A DNA stretch of 64,000 nucleotides from an uncultured Gammaproteobacteria bacterium (GCA_902553145.1 CACDKD010000002.1:160990-224989); one strand, 5' to 3'. Counted from the stretch's first letter, positions 7,073 to 49,754 are shown. A program made the numbers and translations. The notes: a model not told the origin generated them from the letters alone.

Positions 7073-9114
<2,042 letters not shown>

Positions 9115-17721: not shown

Positions 17722-18774
17722 ATGACAGATCTTAAAAAACTAAAAAGCGATATCAAAAAATGGTCAGTAGAACTCGGTTTTGATCAGATGGGTGTGTCAG
17801 GCATTGAGGTTAAAAACGATGAGGAAAAACTGATTCAATGGCTCAAAAATAATCATCATGGATCAATGAAGTATATGGAAAAGCATGGTAAAAAAAGAGC
17901 TCGTCCACATGAGTTGATTCCAGGAGCATTGAGGGTAATTTCATTTAGGATGACTTATCACTTCTTTGATAAAGAGCTCAGTGAAAAACGGTTAAATGAC
18001 AGTAAAAAAGCCTACATTGCAAACTATGCTTTAGGGCGGGATTATCATAAGACAATCAGATCAAAGCTTAAGCAGATAATTGGCCGCATCAGTGATCACT
18101 CAAATATAAAAGAAAAAAATTACTTTGTGGATTCAGCGCCTGTATTAGAACGCGCCTTGGCAAGAAATGCTGGATTGGGTTGGATTGGAAAGAACACAAA
18201 CCTTATCAATAAAAATCATGGCTCGTGGTTTTTTATTGCAGAAATCATTACAGATATTGAACTTGAATTAGATCGACCCTCTACTGATCACTGTGGCAGT
18301 TGCAATGAGTGCATTGATGTTTGTCCGACATCAGCAATCATTGCTCCCTATGAACTTGATGCAAGAAAATGTATCTCCTACCTGACAATAGAAAATAAAG
18401 AATCGATTCCAACAGAAATGAGGGAACCGATTGGCAATAGAATTTTTGGTTGTGACGATTGTCAAATCTTTTGTCCGTGGAATAAATTTGCAAAAACACC
18501 CGTGATTGATGATTTTATGCCAAGAGATGTCTTTGAAGATGCATCTCTAAAATCACTGTTCAAATGGACAGAAGAAGAATGGGATGAGAAAACCAAAGGT
18601 TCAGCAATTCGAAGAAGTGGTTATCAAGGTTGGTTGAGAAATATAGCTGTTGCATTGGGAAATTCAGAAAAAGAAATGGACACGGTGAATCTTCTTAAAT
18701 CCAAAAAAGGGAAAGTCAGTTCAATGGTGGATGAGCACATTGACTGGGCAGTTGAGCAACAACTATCAGATTAA
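17722..18774 (+). CDS. queG: epoxyqueuosine reductase
   Basis: 350 aa. Ferredoxin-type Cys clusters CGSCNECIDVCPT and CDDCQIFCPWN, plus GLGWIGKNT.LI. It lies divergent from nnr, as E. coli yjeS/yjeF do. Confidence 0.9.
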   Translation: MTDLKKLKSDIKKWSVELGFDQMGVSGIEVKNDEEKLIQWLKNNHHGSMKYMEKHGKKRARPHELIPGALRVISFRMTYHFFDKELSEKRLNDSKKAYIANYALGRDYHKTIRSKLKQIIGRISDHSNIKEKNYFVDSAPVLERALARNAGLGWIGKNTNLINKNHGSWFFIAEIITDIELELDRPSTDHCGSCNECIDVCPTSAIIAPYELDARKCISYLTIENKESIPTEMREPIGNRIFGCDDCQIFCPWNKFAKTPVIDDFMPRDVFEDASLKSLFKWTEEEWDEKTKGSAIRRSGYQGWLRNIAVALGNSEKEMDTVNLLKSKKGKVSSMVDEHIDWAVEQQLSD

Positions 18775-29021: not shown

Positions 29022-29238
29022 CTAGAACCGTATATTCTGCATCAATTATTGTCTCATCTGAATCCTTATTTTTCTCATTCTTCATAAAGAAACCTCGTAT
29101 GTAAAAACCAATGATCGCCAATATTAAAAATCCAATAATAGTCATCAACACCAAACCACCAAAAATGATCGAAAGAACGAATATGCCGAGTCCAAATAGG
29201 ATACCTAAAGCTCTGATGATTAAATCAATGGGTGACAT
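28999..29238 (-). CDS. small two-TM membrane protein, unknown function
   Basis: 79 aa. Two hydrophobic helices followed by an acidic tail. It overlaps the downstream gene by 23 nt. No recognisable family. Confidence 0.5.
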   Translation of the reverse strand: MSPIDLIIRALGILFGLGIFVLSIIFGGLVLMTIIGFLILAIIGFYIRGFFMKNEKNKDSDETIIDAEYTVLDDRERDD

Positions 29239-29359
29239 ATTTTATTGCGGAGTATATTTGATGTTGCATAAGAGGTTATTAAACTTTATATCATTTTGGT
29301 AGGCAACTACAGATAAAGAATGCCGTTTAAAAAACTTTCAAAAAATTAGTAATATTTTA

Positions 29360-29388
29360 TTGAATGTTCTCTTTTTGTTCTCTATTAT
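29360..29388 (+). promoter_or_regulatory. putative lexA promoter (-35 TTGAAT, 17-nt spacer, -10 TATTAT) with an embedded GTTC-N7-GTTC direct repeat (candidate LexA operator)
   Basis: TTGAAT 29360-29365 and TATTAT 29383-29388. TGTTCTCT occurs twice (29365-29372 and 29376-29383) with an 11-bp period, filling the spacer. The element lies 27 nt upstream of ATG 29416. Confidence 0.5.
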
Positions 29389-29415
29389 CTAATTAATAAA
29401 AAATTGAGAAAAAAA

Positions 29416-30024
29416 ATGTTAACTCCAAGCGAAACCAAAACCTTAAAATTCATTCAAAAGTACTGCATTGAGAAGGGCTGCTCGCCTACCCTTACAGAAA
29501 TTGCCGATGGAATTGGTATTAAATCCAGGGGCGTTGTGCATCGATATATCAAGTCTCTTGAGTCCAAAAAATTACTCAGCGTAGCATCCAATAGAAAAAG
29601 AGGTATATGCCTCAATCTGGAAGCCTATGAAAATCAGTCCATCGCTCCCATTATTCCGCTGTTGGGGCGTATAGCAGCCGGGCAACCAATCGAAGCAATT
29701 GAGGATAGACATGAAATCAACCTTGCGGACTTTATCATGGATCCCGATCGATTTGCCTTACAGGTAACTGGTGAGTCAATGATGGATGCTGGCATACTTG
29801 ATGGGGACACGGTCATCATTAAGCATCAAAACACCGCAAACAATGGCGATATTGTTGTTGCCCTTATCGATGGTCTTGAGGCAACGCTGAAGCGCTTTAA
29901 AAGACTTCCCAAAGGAATGATACTTTTAATTCCAGAAAATAAATCCATGGAAGCAATTGCATATGAGGCTGAGCGTATTCAGATACAAGGAGTAGTTGTT
30001 GGCCAACTTAGAAGCTACCAATAA
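29416..30024 (+). CDS. lexA: SOS repressor LexA
   Basis: wHTH N-domain (MLTPSETKTLKFIQKY...PTLTEIADGIGIKSRGVVHRYIKSLE), cleavage site GRIAAGQPI, Ser VTGESMMDAGI and Lys ATLKRF. The track start is TTG 29404. ATG 29416 aligns better with LexA N-termini. Confidence 0.93.
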   Translation: MLTPSETKTLKFIQKYCIEKGCSPTLTEIADGIGIKSRGVVHRYIKSLESKKLLSVASNRKRGICLNLEAYENQSIAPIIPLLGRIAAGQPIEAIEDRHEINLADFIMDPDRFALQVTGESMMDAGILDGDTVIIKHQNTANNGDIVVALIDGLEATLKRFKRLPKGMILLIPENKSMEAIAYEAERIQIQGVVVGQLRSYQ

Positions 30025-31246
30025 AGATTCTTGGCCAAGAATCATCGCTCTGGTTGATATGAACTCTTTTTTTGCATCCATCGAGCAAATGGATTATCCG
30101 GAGTTGTATGGAAGACCCGTTGGCGTTACAAATGGTCTACAAGGGACTTGCATCATCACCTGCTCTTATGAGGCTCGTTCTTGGGGCATCAAAACGGGCA
30201 TGCGGTTAAAAGAAGCTAGAAAATTATGTCCAGACATCATTCAAAGGCCCTCCAGACCCAAAAGATATGCGCAAATTTCCACTCGTATCATGTCTGCGCT
30301 CAAGGCCGTTACTCCCGATATTGAAGTCTTCTCTGTTGATGAGGCATTCTTAGACCTAACCCACTGCAAGAAGATTATTCATTCACCAGAGCAAATAGCA
30401 AAAAGAATTCAAGATCTTGTATGCAACGTATCAGGAATATCTTGTTCGGTTGGTATAAGCGGAGATAAAACGACTGCAAAATATGCTGCCAAACAAGACA
30501 AGCCTTATGGGATCACAATCATCCCTCCTCTTGATGCTGAGTCTAGATTGAAGAATGTTCCAGTAGATCAATTGTGCGGTATTGGAAAAGGCATAAAAAG
30601 ATTTCTCAATTCGCATGGAGTATATAAATGTGGCGATATGAAAAACATTCCAATCAGTGTTCTTGGTAAGCACTTTGGGCATCCAGGTCGAAGAATTTGG
30701 CTGATGGCTCAAGGCAAGGATCCTGAACAAATACAGACCACTGTCGCTCCGCCAAAATCAATAGGTCATGGAAAAGTTATGCCTCCAGATACTCGTGATA
30801 AAAGAGTCATCCTTACTTACTTACAGCACATGAGTGAAAAAGTGGGTGCACGACTTAGAAAACACGACTTTAAATCTTCGGCATTCTTCATTGGATTAAA
30901 ATCTAAAAACGGTTGGATAGGATCAAAACTAAAACTTGCCTACTCTATTGATGATGGCCTGAAGATCATGCAGCTCGGGGAAAATATGATTAGAAGCAGA
31001 TGGCATGGAGAAGGCATTCATCAGATACAAGTTACTGCTCTTAATCCACAACAATCAAACCAGCAAATTGATTTCCTGGAACAAGGCGAACATGCGAATA
31101 TTGCTGTTAAAAATAGAGTCATAGATTCAATCAATGAGAAATATGGCAACCTAACGATCGCACCCAGTAACTTAATGCATAGGTCAAGCATGCCTGATGT
31201 AATTGCACCGGCTTGGAAACCATCCGGCCATAGACAAACAATATAA
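29996..31246 (+). CDS. dinB: Y-family DNA polymerase (Pol IV / UmuC-like)
   Basis: 416 aa. IIALVDMNSFFASIE, TCSYEARSWGIKTGM, catalytic SVDEAFLDLT, and GISGDKTTAKYAAK. The only in-frame start upstream of the catalytic Asp is TTG 29996/29999, inside the lexA 3' end. Subfamily (DinB versus UmuC) is uncertain. Confidence 0.85.
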   Translation: MLANLEATNKDSWPRIIALVDMNSFFASIEQMDYPELYGRPVGVTNGLQGTCIITCSYEARSWGIKTGMRLKEARKLCPDIIQRPSRPKRYAQISTRIMSALKAVTPDIEVFSVDEAFLDLTHCKKIIHSPEQIAKRIQDLVCNVSGISCSVGISGDKTTAKYAAKQDKPYGITIIPPLDAESRLKNVPVDQLCGIGKGIKRFLNSHGVYKCGDMKNIPISVLGKHFGHPGRRIWLMAQGKDPEQIQTTVAPPKSIGHGKVMPPDTRDKRVILTYLQHMSEKVGARLRKHDFKSSAFFIGLKSKNGWIGSKLKLAYSIDDGLKIMQLGENMIRSRWHGEGIHQIQVTALNPQQSNQQIDFLEQGEHANIAVKNRVIDSINEKYGNLTIAPSNLMHRSSMPDVIAPAWKPSGHRQTI

Positions 31247-31250
31247 CGAC

Positions 31251-31661
31251 ATGTGTGGCGGAGCTTCATATACGCATAACGGTGATCACATGAGGGTATA
31301 TTTCCCAAATCCAAAAGCAAAACTCCCTGTCATCACGAAAGAAAGTGATACGAAATTAATACTCTGGGGAAGGCGTAAAGGACAATCGGGAAAACTTCCA
31401 TTAGGAGGATGGGCAAGATTAGATTCGATTCATGCTGGAATATGGGACAGATGGTTTCCAAAACCTGTAAAAATACCCGTATTGAGCTTTATGGAAAAAG
31501 ATCATGAGGGAAAAAGTCATTGGTTTGATTTAGTTAAAGGGCAGTGGATACAAGGTTTAATAGCAGTAGAAAAACAAGAACAGAGACTATACGTAGTAAC
31601 AATTGAACCGGAGCTTGAACACAGCATTCATGATCGATGGCCTAGGGTTATGAGTGGTTAG
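31251..31661 (+). CDS. short SRAP (SOS response-associated peptidase, YedK/DUF159)-like protein
   Basis: Starts MCGG (Cys2 nucleophile position). LILWG, GWARLDS (compare INARVET), FME (compare FEW) and IHDRWPRV (compare IHDRRPLV) are collinear with E. coli YedK. It is only 136 aa. The track ORF starts at 31203 inside the polymerase gene. Confidence 0.6.
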   Translation: MCGGASYTHNGDHMRVYFPNPKAKLPVITKESDTKLILWGRRKGQSGKLPLGGWARLDSIHAGIWDRWFPKPVKIPVLSFMEKDHEGKSHWFDLVKGQWIQGLIAVEKQEQRLYVVTIEPELEHSIHDRWPRVMSG

Positions 31662-46227: not shown

Positions 46228-47430
46228 ATGAGTATTTTTAGGGCAATATTCATAGCATCATTGATTTTCTTATCTTTTCAGGATCTTTCGTTCGCTCATA
46301 CAAAAAGTGTGTCTTACTCGACTTGGATAATCCAAGAAGATCAGGCGATTCTTGATTTCACAGTCTCATCTAGAGAAGTAACAAAATTGAAGGAATATCA
46401 ATTAAATTATCCAGATTTAGAGAAAAGCATAACGAATCATTTAGTCAAAAATATTACATCGGAGCAGATTCTTCCTAGTCCCTCTGTGAATATTCTCAAT
46501 ACAGAAATCGGCACAACAGGCATTTCTCTTAAATTTGATATCAACCAGGCCGATGATTTTACTATCGATATGAATGTATTTTTTGATCAAATTCCAGGTC
46601 ATATTCACTATGCAAAAATTAATCAAAAAGACTATAAAAAGACTATAGCACTCAATCAAAATAGTCATGAAATAGTTATCTTGAATAATGAGAGCGAAAC
46701 GATAAAACCAGTGCCTTTTGATTCATTCAAACAGCATGTTGGTCTTGGCTTTGCCCACATTCTTGAAGGGATTGATCATTTACTTTTTTTACTCGCTTTA
46801 CTTATTTTATGCAACTCGCTCAAAAGTCTTATTTTTGCTGCGACAGGCTTTACCATTGGCCACAGTTTAACCTTGGCACTTGCAGCCTCTAATGTAGTCA
46901 TTCCTCAAGTCAATATAATTGAATCCTTGATTGGATGGACAATTGTCCTGGCAAGCATTGAATCTTTAAATCTTCCAAACAATGAACTCAAAAAAATACA
47001 GTGGGTTATTTCAGCCATAGCAATCATGTCATTCATTTTCATTGTTTTTAATATGATTGATCTCAGTGGTGGTTTTATTTTTGGGCTTGGCCTTTTGTCA
47101 CTGGCAATACTGAAATTGAATGAAGACGTCGAGCAAGCTAATAAGTTGAGACCAATGCTGGCAATTATTTTTGGAACCATCCATGGATTTGGATTTGCAA
47201 ATATTCTCAATGAAATCAGTTTGGATAGAGCAAATTTTTTAGTTTCACTTGTGGGATTCAATATCGGTGTTGAAATCGGTCAGATACTCGTTCTTTTGAT
47301 CATGTGGTTCATTGTGTCCTTTCTCATGAGAAGAATACTGGCTGAACACATGCAAAAGATAACCGAGATAGTCTCTTCATTCTTATGTTCAATTGGTCTA
47401 TATTGGTTTCTGATGCGTTTATTTGGATAG
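46228..47430 (+). CDS. HupE/UreJ family metal (Ni/Co-type) transporter with an extra N-terminal periplasmic domain
   Basis: 400 aa. The signal ends LSFA|H, so the mature N-terminal residue is His. After about 170 aa comes GLGFAHILEGIDHLLFLLALL (HupE/UreJ signature) and about 6 TM segments. Confidence 0.7.
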   Translation: MSIFRAIFIASLIFLSFQDLSFAHTKSVSYSTWIIQEDQAILDFTVSSREVTKLKEYQLNYPDLEKSITNHLVKNITSEQILPSPSVNILNTEIGTTGISLKFDINQADDFTIDMNVFFDQIPGHIHYAKINQKDYKKTIALNQNSHEIVILNNESETIKPVPFDSFKQHVGLGFAHILEGIDHLLFLLALLILCNSLKSLIFAATGFTIGHSLTLALAASNVVIPQVNIIESLIGWTIVLASIESLNLPNNELKKIQWVISAIAIMSFIFIVFNMIDLSGGFIFGLGLLSLAILKLNEDVEQANKLRPMLAIIFGTIHGFGFANILNEISLDRANFLVSLVGFNIGVEIGQILVLLIMWFIVSFLMRRILAEHMQKITEIVSSFLCSIGLYWFLMRLFG

Positions 47431-47450
47431 AATACTTTAAAGGGGGAACA

Positions 47451-49754
47451 ATGACTAAAAGTGTAAAATATTTGCTTCTGATATTGGTTTTGGCTTTGAT
47501 TGGAATATCAGCTTTTATTCTCACGACGTCGCCTCATAGCTATAAAAAATTTACAACAGACTATTACGATACCAATCCACTAACCAATCAAGATCCAACA
47601 GACATCAAAAGACCGATTGATTTGATTGATGACGATTCAAAACAAATACTCTGGGGAGATACGCATGTTCACACGACTTATTCGATGGATGCGTTTTACA
47701 TCTCTTTACCTCTTATGCATGGATCAAGAGGTGCATTCCCGCCTGCGTTTGCTTGCGATTATGCCAGGTTTATTTCACAAATCGATTTTTACGTATTGAC
47801 GGATCATGCTGAATCGTACACGCCAAGAACATGGAATGATCAAGTCGAAAGCATCAGACAATGCAATGCAATTTCTGGCGAAGAAAATCCGGACTTGGTG
47901 GCATTCATAGGATGGGAATGGACACAAGCCGGAAATACACCCGATGATCATTATGGTCACCACAACGTATTCTTCAAAGATTACAAGGAAGGACAAATCC
48001 CTGACCGACCAATTGCTGCGGGCGGGGCTCTTGCATTGGTTCTCAGGCTTCAACTGGCCGATGTGAATCGTAACTTGTATCTCTTTGATCCTGTAAACAG
48101 TGATTATTATTTTTCATTTGCAGACTACCTCGACATGTTGCTTGAAACAGAATCGTGTCCAGAGGGATTGCCATCGAATTATTTGCCCAAAGATTGCTAT
48201 GAAACGGCTCAAACACCTGCGGATCTGTACAGCAAACTCGATGACTGGGGGTTTGAGACCGAGGTGATTCCTCATGGAACAACATGGGGTTTTTATACGC
48301 CACAAGCTGGGGATTGGAAAGAATACATGCGAGATGAGGACAACATTAGACCCGATTACAACAGTGTAATTGAAATCTACTCGGGTCATGGAAACTCAGA
48401 AGAATATTTTGATTTCAAAGTCGTCGATTTCGATGAAAACGGAGAGATGATTTGTCCAGAGCCTACAAAGGACTATCTGCCGACATGCTATCAAGCAGCG
48501 GTGATTAATAAGAACAGATGCTTAGAAGAAGGAAATTCTATAGAAGTTTGCGAGGAATTGGCCGAACAAACAAAAAAACAAGTGAATGACTTTCCAGGCG
48601 CTACAGGAGCGAGAGTCCTATTTGGTGTTGATGACAATGCATGGCTGGATGCTGGACAAGCCAGAGGAGCCTATCTTCCCGCATTTAATTACCGACCTAA
48701 GAAATCAGTTCAATACGGTCTAGCTTTAAGGAATGAAGAATTCGAAGACGGCAAAGAACGATTCAAATGGGGATTTATAGGATCCAGTGATACCCATACT
48801 TCAAGAGCAGGACATGGATTCAAACAATTGCTTCGAGTCGGTGGAACCGAAGCAAGAGGTGCTGTCAGCGAGAGATGGAGACACTTGCTCAATGACGTGA
48901 CAACTGAAAAAACAAAATCCGGGCTGAGAACAATAGAAGAACTGAATGAATTGACCGGTGCCTCTCCCATTGATGTGGAAAGAGCTGCAAGCTTCTGGTC
49001 GCTTGGTGGTCTCATGGCTGTGCATTCCTCTGGAAGAGATCGTGATTCAATCTGGCAAGCGATGAAACGAAAAGAAGTATATGCAACAACCGGGCATCGA
49101 ATCTTACTGCATTTTGATTTAGTGGATGAAGACTCAATCAAACCCATGGGAAGCATCATTGAAACTTCTTCAAATCCAATATTTCGTGTGAAAGCAATGG
49201 GCTCATTCATACAACTCCCTGGATGTCCAGACTATGTTCATGAGGCGCTTTCAGAAAAGAGGCTTCAAAAAATTGCCAATGGTGAGTGCTATCATCCTTC
49301 GGATGAGCGACATCGATTAGAGCGAATAGAGGTCATAAAAATCACACCGCAAAACAGCAAAGATGAAGACCCATCAACATTAATTTTTGATGCATGGAAA
49401 TCATTTGACTGTGGCCCGGAACAAATACAGTGCGAGGTTGAATTCACTGATGAAGATTTTTCAGCCAGCCAAAGAGACGTTGTTTATTATGTAAGGGTCA
49501 TTGAAGAGGACACGCTGCTGGTCAATGGAGGCAATATGAGAACTCAGTTTGATGCCGATGGTCATCCAATCTCTATTAACCCATGCAATGCCGATTATAG
49601 GGAAGATTATGAAGAAGAATGTTTAGGGCCCGGTGGTCATCGAGCTTGGTCTTCTCCAATATTTGTCGATTACAAAGAGCAAGTTATTAATGCTAACATT
49701 GAGAGTGATATTCAGGCCACAATAGAAATAAATGAGCAATCTGCAATTAACTAA
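47451..49754 (+). CDS. DUF3604 domain protein (PHP-like metal-dependent hydrolase fold), exported or membrane-anchored
   Basis: The ATG at 47451 is preceded by AAGGGGG. N-terminal anchor MTKSVKYLLLILVLALIGISAF. ILWGDTHVHTTYSMDAF is the DUF3604/PHP His motif. Many Cys residues are present. The track ORF start 47385 overlaps hupE. Confidence 0.7.
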   Translation: MTKSVKYLLLILVLALIGISAFILTTSPHSYKKFTTDYYDTNPLTNQDPTDIKRPIDLIDDDSKQILWGDTHVHTTYSMDAFYISLPLMHGSRGAFPPAFACDYARFISQIDFYVLTDHAESYTPRTWNDQVESIRQCNAISGEENPDLVAFIGWEWTQAGNTPDDHYGHHNVFFKDYKEGQIPDRPIAAGGALALVLRLQLADVNRNLYLFDPVNSDYYFSFADYLDMLLETESCPEGLPSNYLPKDCYETAQTPADLYSKLDDWGFETEVIPHGTTWGFYTPQAGDWKEYMRDEDNIRPDYNSVIEIYSGHGNSEEYFDFKVVDFDENGEMICPEPTKDYLPTCYQAAVINKNRCLEEGNSIEVCEELAEQTKKQVNDFPGATGARVLFGVDDNAWLDAGQARGAYLPAFNYRPKKSVQYGLALRNEEFEDGKERFKWGFIGSSDTHTSRAGHGFKQLLRVGGTEARGAVSERWRHLLNDVTTEKTKSGLRTIEELNELTGASPIDVERAASFWSLGGLMAVHSSGRDRDSIWQAMKRKEVYATTGHRILLHFDLVDEDSIKPMGSIIETSSNPIFRVKAMGSFIQLPGCPDYVHEALSEKRLQKIANGECYHPSDERHRLERIEVIKITPQNSKDEDPSTLIFDAWKSFDCGPEQIQCEVEFTDEDFSASQRDVVYYVRVIEEDTLLVNGGNMRTQFDADGHPISINPCNADYREDYEEECLGPGGHRAWSSPIFVDYKEQVINANIESDIQATIEINEQSAIN

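Follow-up and report, generated by a model that had tools for sequence, protein, structure and literature searches.

The lexA gene in a 64-kb stretch of DNA from an uncultured gammaproteobacterium (hereafter the window, meaning the whole stretch that was analysed; ~38% GC) is transcribed from a promoter whose spacer is filled by a direct repeat, which raises the question of whether a LexA of this class could read something other than the palindrome CTGT-N8-ACAG. A first-pass annotation of the sequence had proposed that the repeat is a non-canonical LexA operator of alphaproteobacterial likeness in a gamma lineage, placed so as to occlude RNA polymerase, and the comparisons described below support this proposal as a prediction from sequence. 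The TTGAAT and TATTAT hexamers, the pair of octamers and the distance to the lexA ATG on which it was built were each confirmed by reading the sequence (Table 1). The octamer TGTTCTCT occurs twice at an offset of 11 nt (29365-29372 and 29376-29383), and the ATG at 29416, whose frame was checked, lies 27 nt past the -10 hexamer. In an independent consensus scan, TTGAAT-17-TATTAT was the sole sigma70-like site in 29200-29450. The GTTC-N7-GTTC motif at 29366-29380 is contained in a fuller unit, GTTCTC-N5-GTTCTC, which is the better description of the repeat and takes up the whole 17-nt gap between the two hexamers. The palindrome CTGT-N8-ACAG is absent upstream of lexA, as the annotation had also stated; its sole match in the 64-kb window, at 18556, is unrelated to lexA.

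Table 1. Features of the lexA promoter and operon, in window coordinates
Feature	Position	Strand	Basis and remarks
-35 hexamer TTGAAT	29360..29365	+	Sequence reading; promoter scan; same in 10 orthologous promoters
Putative LexA operator GTTCTC-TTTTT-GTTCTC	29366..29382	+	Half-sites at 29366-29371 and 29377-29382; 11-bp period
-10 hexamer TATTAT	29383..29388	+	Abuts second half-site; footprint and promoter scan
Purine-rich ribosome-binding region GAGAAA	29405..29410	+	5 nt 5' of the lexA ATG; sequence reading
lexA, 202 aa, wHTH and S24 self-cleaving domain	29416..30024	+	Pfam, TIGR00498, PDB comparison
polY, Y-family (Pol IV-like) translesion polymerase	29996..31246	+	IMS, IMS_C and IMS_HHH domains
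orf136, 136 aa, third operon gene	31251..31661	+	Begins MCGG; HDRWPR near C-terminus

By itself, the repeat is not significant within the window. GTTC-N7-GTTC was observed twice against an expectation of 1.25, GTTCTC-N5-GTTCTC with up to two mismatches five times against 5.6, and exact 8-mers repeated at offset 11 three times against 1.3 (p ~0.16). The only ground on which the repeat can be said to exceed chance is its conservation in orthologous promoters. The lexA site is the only perfect match in the 64-kb window, which holds no further strong box, and its two-mismatch matches are at chance level. No convincing box lies upstream of yebC-ruvCAB or ftsK, both of them SOS loci in E. coli. A one-mismatch box, GTTCTTCTATTGTTCTC, lies on the - strand at 48926-48942, where the window reaches its highest GC content (42%), within a 789-aa open reading frame (47385-49754) with only a weak metallohydrolase match; this box is probably due to chance. 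A trial scan of viral contigs with the plain motif returned at least 120 matches of chance-like appearance. An apparent double box on one of these contigs (L021) was rejected, being in fact an 11-bp tandem repeat within phage coding sequence: TTTGTTCTCCR is present there in 4-5 copies (7925-7980) inside a phage replication-protein gene and mimics tandem LexA boxes, and is thus a caution for LexA motif scans.

Footprinting of orthologous lexA promoters, which the first-pass annotation had named as a check on its claim, came out in favour of that claim. Within the window's own clade, the block ATATTTnATTGAATGTTCTCnnTTTGTTCTCTATTAT is invariant in 10 promoters while the 5'UTR and the upstream flank drift. 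The wider family of related LexA proteins was then sampled through every member with an obtainable promoter, a set of 21 with LexA identities of 44-99% and GC contents of 32-65% that takes in a sister subfamily whose lexA lies in other genomic surroundings, copies carried on islands (from Ca. Thiodiazotropha and a 3.49-Mb genome) and a lineage of 65% GC. All 21 have a GTTCTC-N5-GTTCTC box that agrees at 10 or more of the 12 positions, mostly at 12/12 (in the window, L001-L011, L261, L274 and L282, among others), and further family promoters beyond these are likewise boxed. The member of 65% GC carries TTGAAA-GTTCTCAAAAAGTTCTC-TAATAT, which is exactly the architecture seen in the window. Across the family the box takes one of two stereotyped positions. 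Where it is on the + strand it falls within the promoter spacer, at -50 to -60; where it is on the - strand, as in the distant members L014, L016, L262, L264, L266 and L270, it covers the ribosome-binding site and lies at about -21. Some lexA promoters have both. Read against these reverse-oriented boxes, the ribosome-binding region of the window may keep a weak remnant of one (about 8/12 by eye). CTGT-N8-ACAG was found in 0/21 of the family lexA promoters and in 0/112 of the recA promoters described below.

By its sequence, the window protein is a true LexA whose cleavage site is intact. Its winged helix-turn-helix matches PF01726 (E=2.2e-7; 31 bits vs a cutoff of 23.7) and aligns over the full length with solved LexA structures, its S24 domain matches PF00717 (E=1.3e-30), and the protein as a whole reaches 160.6 bits against the TIGR00498 equivalog model of NCBIfam (cutoff 110.95). 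The A88-G89 cleavage site, S121 and K159 are all present and are invariant, or nearly so, in 38 family members. The nearest solved structures are the T. maritima and E. coli LexA proteins, at ~30% identity. In helix 3, the RSPNAAEEHLKALA of E. coli LexA corresponds to KSRGVVHRYIKSLE in the window protein. The E. coli-type recognition helix SPNAAEEHLKAL differs from that of the window, and none was present among the 150 nearest representatives, a set ranked by similarity and not a measure of genome content. On comparison, the window helix instead resembles the alpha-type KSGIHRLITALE, and a core of KS-x-x-[VI]-HR-x-I-x-x-LE is common to the window family and verified alphaproteobacterial LexA.

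A search of 1.8 billion representatives defined the family by a helix-3 signature, KS[KR]G[TV][VI]HRY[IV], and a length of 196-212 aa. LexAs of the alpha type, a group verified through P0380 from a named member of the Rhizobiaceae, appeared only at ranks 104-144; these are proteins of 225-299 aa with a long linker and the helix SKSGIHRLITALEERGF. In a neighbour-joining tree computed without support values, the alpha group forms a separate, neighbouring branch. The N-terminal domain of the window LexA is 31% identical to the alpha type and 29% to the E. coli type, and the C-terminal domain ~50% and 37%, respectively. These data indicate a separate short-linker family outside the alphaproteobacterial LexA clade, and an origin by simple transfer from that clade was discarded, since the protein does not fall within it on the same neighbour-joining tree, which carries no support values. 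The likeness to alphaproteobacterial LexA holds for the recognition helix, which differs from that of E. coli and has its core in common with alpha LexA, and does not extend to the protein as a whole, which is not of the alpha clade. Named members of the family come from Ca. Thiodiazotropha, Coxiellaceae, a Lamellibrachia endosymbiont and Chromatiales, and by this sampling the short-linker LexA appears widespread in non-enteric Gammaproteobacteria.

The first-pass annotation had also pointed to other SOS promoters as places where the motif should recur, and at recA this was found to be so. Metagenomes were scanned with a composite pattern, a perfect box followed after 75-135 nt by codons for the RecA peptide FGKGxxM, which was chosen since a plain motif scan would be swamped. 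The scan returned 112 metagenomic contigs, all of which encode a genuine RecA of ~350 aa; these RecAs are at least 68% identical to one another and come from genomes of 41-65% GC. The 5-nt spacer of the box, which the pattern left free, is TTTAT in 107 contigs and TTTGT in the other 5, and an extended -10 element, TGTGATAAT, follows exactly 12 nt past the box in 106/112. In 71 non-redundant recA promoters, the information content is 1.94-2.0 bits per position over box and spacer (1.94 for the free spacer) and 0.36 in the flanks. The recA box overlaps the -35 region at a fixed position, which would be the position of a repressor. As a guard against the selection bias of the pattern, three independent RecA relatives were taken from homologs found only in NCBI MAGs, and 3/3 are boxed with the same spacing in genes with GC3 values of 0.31, 0.62 and ~0.84-0.85. 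The recA loci have the gamma-type order mutS | cinA-recA-recX-alaS-lysC-csrA, and the named RecAs among them are all labelled 'Gammaproteobacteria bacterium'. One recA contig (L243) carries an extra perfect box, GTTCTCACTATGTTCTC, on the - strand at 559-575 in an AT-rich stretch downstream of csrA; there is no obvious gene after it, and the match may be accidental or may mark an additional LexA target (a small gene or an RNA).

A boxed lexA and a boxed recA were never found together on one contig or in one MAG by tblastn of lexA on the recA contigs, by orthologs common to the window and the recA contigs, by closeness of GenBank accession numbers, or by 12 look-ups of MAG accessions. The closest link is assembly ERZ23495177, which holds the exact sequences of both a boxed LexA from a lexA-polY operon (P0506) and a boxed RecA (P0157), with matching composition (GC of 0.62-0.65 and GC3 of 0.83-0.85); this co-occurrence is suggestive of a link between the two genes, not proof. 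The box lies at lexA in the genome under study and at recA in 112 + 3 gamma-type loci of other sources, and we infer that the recA of the window's own organism is boxed as well.

The gamma lineage that the first-pass annotation had assumed is borne out by the closest MAGs, which are labelled Gammaproteobacteria or Woeseia (Gammaproteobacteria, order Woeseiales). When species-representative genomes were scanned with the LexA protein, 16 loci were obtained; every one comes from a gammaproteobacterial MAG of marine or aquatic origin, and several carry the label Woeseia. The synteny of the window and its lexA-polY-orf136 operon are kept in 11 of the 16 (LexA 79-99% identical) and likewise in one ENA contig. 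Throughout this clade the locus has a constant chromosomal place, flanked by fabA/fabB on one side and an SNase gene on the other, and no integrase accompanies it. The genes on the opposite strand upstream of lexA are a small membrane ORF, one for a histidine phosphatase, fabA and fabB; yebC-ruvCAB and ftsK are farther off. The intergenic region 5' of lexA contains a second invariant block, TATTAAACTnTATATCAnnTnnGTAGGCAAC (29277-29314), which may serve the divergent membrane-ORF/hisPhos/fabA genes as a promoter, with TTGCCT-17-TTTAAT on the - strand.

Within the operon, polY starts at a TTG at 29996 or 29999 and overlaps the 3' end of lexA by ~26-29 nt, which implies that the two genes are co-transcribed and that polY is probably translationally coupled to lexA. 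In NCBIfam, PolY matches DNA polymerase IV best, with scores that stay under every curated cutoff. Adjacency of lexA and polY is kept in L002-L012, L016, L266, L270 and L291, and the three-gene unit lexA-polY-orf136/137 recurs in the sister subfamily in its different genomic context, with lexA-polY in the high-GC member. The orf136 product is 83-97% identical across L002-L011 and 60% identical to its counterpart in the sister subfamily (L266), which exceeds the conservation of LexA and PolY, and 74 residues are invariant in seven sequences. It has no sequence match in Pfam, NCBIfam or PDB. Its MCGG and HDRWP motifs suggested by eye an SRAP/YedK-like peptidase, a candidate that the searches of these same databases did not support, and a single-sequence structure model (pLDDT 34) was too low in confidence for use. 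We regard orf136 as encoding an uncharacterised protein that is probably related to DNA damage.

Taken together, these data make it quite probable that GTTCTCTTTTTGTTCTC (29366-29382) is the operator of the LexA encoded 34 nt downstream, and that this LexA autoregulates a lexA-polY-orf136 damage operon. In the proposed mechanism, a LexA dimer would bind the two tandem GTTCTC half-sites one helical turn apart, and RNA polymerase would be kept off the promoter because the site fills the spacer between TTGAAT and TATTAT. On DNA damage, RecA-stimulated self-cleavage at A88-G89 would remove the repressor and induce lexA, the Y-family polymerase gene and orf136, after which newly made LexA would shut the operon again by negative autoregulation. 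Binding, repression and damage induction are all predicted here from the arrangement of the site and the protein. That the box is an operator and not a promoter feature or the site of another factor is argued by three observations: its position varies among genes, it persists in GC-rich genomes, and it occurs at recA.

The same observations bear on two readings in which LexA would have no part. A chance repeat of an AT-rich promoter, conserved through selection on a strong promoter and not as an operator, would agree with the unremarkable statistics of the window and with the overlap of the repeat with both promoter hexamers, for which some conservation is expected anyway. We give this reading hardly any credence, since the box occupies different positions (the spacer at lexA, the -35 region at recA, and the opposite strand over the ribosome-binding site in other lexA genes), is unchanged in genomes with a GC3 of 0.84, and is invariant at spacer positions without a role for sigma70. 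It is also very improbable that the tandem hexamers are bound by another regulator, such as a winged-helix response regulator of the OmpR/PhoB type, and that LexA autoregulation does not occur. Direct repeats of 11-bp period are typical sites of such regulators, so that two 6-bp direct repeats spaced 11 bp centre to centre are a classical arrangement for them, and one locus (L290) does have an OmpR-family regulator and kinase two genes 5' of lexA. However, no response regulator is conserved nearby, and none lies near lexA in the window; the box accompanies lexA in every genomic context, mobile islands included, and the only other place where it was found is recA, a canonical LexA target. Its sequence moreover equals the experimentally established alphaproteobacterial LexA box.

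The main alternative accepts the box as a LexA operator but takes this LexA for a cassette-specific second paralog that would control no more than its own translesion-polymerase operon, with another LexA running the main SOS regulon. In its favour, lexA does head an operon that includes a polymerase of error-prone type, and a portable cassette would be expected to recur as lexA-polY-orf136/137 does elsewhere and lexA-polY does in the high-GC member. Other members of the family are plainly accessory copies on islands, and the 64-kb window contains no second boxed gene. Family membership alone is no proof of a master-regulator role because some members are island-borne paralogs beside integrases. 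We nevertheless consider the paralog reading unlikely. The box, not the palindrome, is present at recA promoters across a broad gamma RecA clade, and because it holds the recA promoter there, a LexA of direct-repeat specificity would govern a core SOS gene in that clade. The locus of the window clade is chromosomally fixed with no integrase, the protein scores as a LexA equivalog, and the 150 nearest representatives include no E. coli-type LexA, although this is not a genome-wide count. The autoregulatory operator remains the preferred reading, and the placement of the box over the recA -35 region makes a LexA of this direct-repeat type the most likely master SOS repressor in the relatives with a boxed recA.

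In reviews, GTTC-N7-GTTC is assigned to the Alphaproteobacteria (PMC8565304; PMC9578287), and the candidate operator is near-identical to that of the alphaproteobacterial LexA system (Caulobacter, Rhodobacter, Rhizobium), with tandem GTTC cores 11 bp apart and a T-rich spacer. Caulobacter LexA boxes such as GTTCttgttatGTTC (PMC12700426) and the GTTCtctttatGTTC found at recA of the gamma-type loci are nearly alike. Alphaproteobacterial boxes occur at lexA and recA, and here the box lies at lexA in the window's own genome and at recA in relatives. The helix-3 core KS..[VI]HR.I..LE is common to both systems, and the C-terminal domains are ~50% identical. Unlike the alphaproteobacterial system, the host here is gammaproteobacterial, the half-site extends to GTTCTC, and the LexA is of 196-212 aa as against 225-299 aa with a long linker; its N-terminal domain (31% identical) is no closer to that of the alpha type than to that of E. 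coli (29%). With the canonical LexA of gamma- and betaproteobacteria (E. coli, Pseudomonas), the window protein has in common its architecture, its length of 202 aa, the cleavage residues and the class of host, and the logic of autoregulation through an operator overlapping the promoter would be the same. It differs from these in the absence of CTGT-N8-ACAG at lexA and recA, in a repeat that is direct and not inverted, in an overall identity of ~30%, and in helix 3 (KSRGVVHRYIKSLE vs RSPNAAEEHLKALA).

There is a precedent for an alpha-type direct-repeat box outside the Alphaproteobacteria. In 2006, Mazon et al. reportedly described GTTC-N7-GTTC for the LexA of Acidobacterium capsulatum and read it as lateral acquisition of an alphaproteobacterial lexA. 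Unlike that case, the LexA of the window is not inside the alpha clade, and its family is broad within the Gammaproteobacteria. Second LexAs linked to cassettes offer another comparison. In P. putida, LexA2 heads a lexA2-imuA-imuB-dnaE2 cassette, and Sanchez-Alberola et al. are said to have reported a non-canonical betaproteobacterial LexA in 2015. Such LexAs likewise stand first in an operon with an error-prone polymerase, have a motif that is non-canonical for their class, and are portable. The partner here, unlike in the P. putida LexA2 cassette, is a single Y-family polymerase with orf136 and not imuA-imuB-dnaE2, and the motif is also found at the recA promoters of relatives, which would be unexpected for a purely cassette-specific regulator. 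Duplications of lexA have been noted to accompany divergence of the motif (PMC8565304). A full-text search that covered subscription journals in part returned no report of the motif in a gammaproteobacterial lineage or of LexA operators in Woeseia. What would be new is a direct-repeat LexA operator in a new class of host, together with a distinct LexA family; the regulatory logic is known and conventional.

Since the lexA-type box fronts recA in many relatives, a large environmental group of Gammaproteobacteria probably runs its SOS response through a DNA code that is not the textbook one. SOS regulons, mutagenesis potential and the induction of prophages and integrons are predicted from LexA boxes, for which the default in Gammaproteobacteria is the E. 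coli palindrome, and a search for this palindrome would find nothing in the short-linker LexA family. The bacteria concerned include sulfur-oxidising symbionts and some of the most abundant inhabitants of marine sediment and of deep water, and the motif GTTCTC-TTTWT-GTTCTC should make their regulons predictable. The family also adds a data point to the evolution of LexA motifs from the Gram-positive GAAC-N4-GTTC to the alphaproteobacterial direct repeat and the beta/gamma palindrome, and its short-linker LexA could give a handle on how a symmetric dimer binds a direct repeat. A wider reading, which we offer tentatively and regard as possible though doubtful, is that much of the class Gammaproteobacteria, beyond the enteric and pseudomonad groups (Woeseiales, Chromatiales-like sulfur symbionts and others), uses tandem GTTC as its operating SOS code, through a compact LexA without the long linker. 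If this were true, the CTGT-N8-ACAG palindrome would be a later innovation within the class or the mark of an old lexA replacement, a LexA dimer of E. coli size could read head-to-tail half-sites, and the recognition of tandem GTTC would be no alphaproteobacterial speciality.

A three-gene unit of lexA, a gene for a GMT-wHTH protein (385 aa) and a gene for a DUF5131 protein was found in Ca. Thiodiazotropha and in genome OY726078.1 (L262 10001-12563 and L264 10001-12548; also L263 and L265). Its LexA, of 212 aa, belongs to the same family, a perfect reverse-oriented box abuts the lexA ATG, and the unit adjoins a phage-type integrase and type I restriction/defence genes, so that it looks like a mobile or defence island that would be under LexA control. 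In the population with LexA P0036, the polymerase is called only as a 203-aa C-terminal fragment (L276 1848-2459), which points to a natural variant of polY that is truncated or frameshifted. The P0506 LexA (L290-L292) was deposited as a protein of 224 aa with the box and the -10 element inside its annotated N-terminal extension; the conserved start MLSPRERD lies 27 codons downstream of the annotated one, and the deposited start codon is probably wrong.
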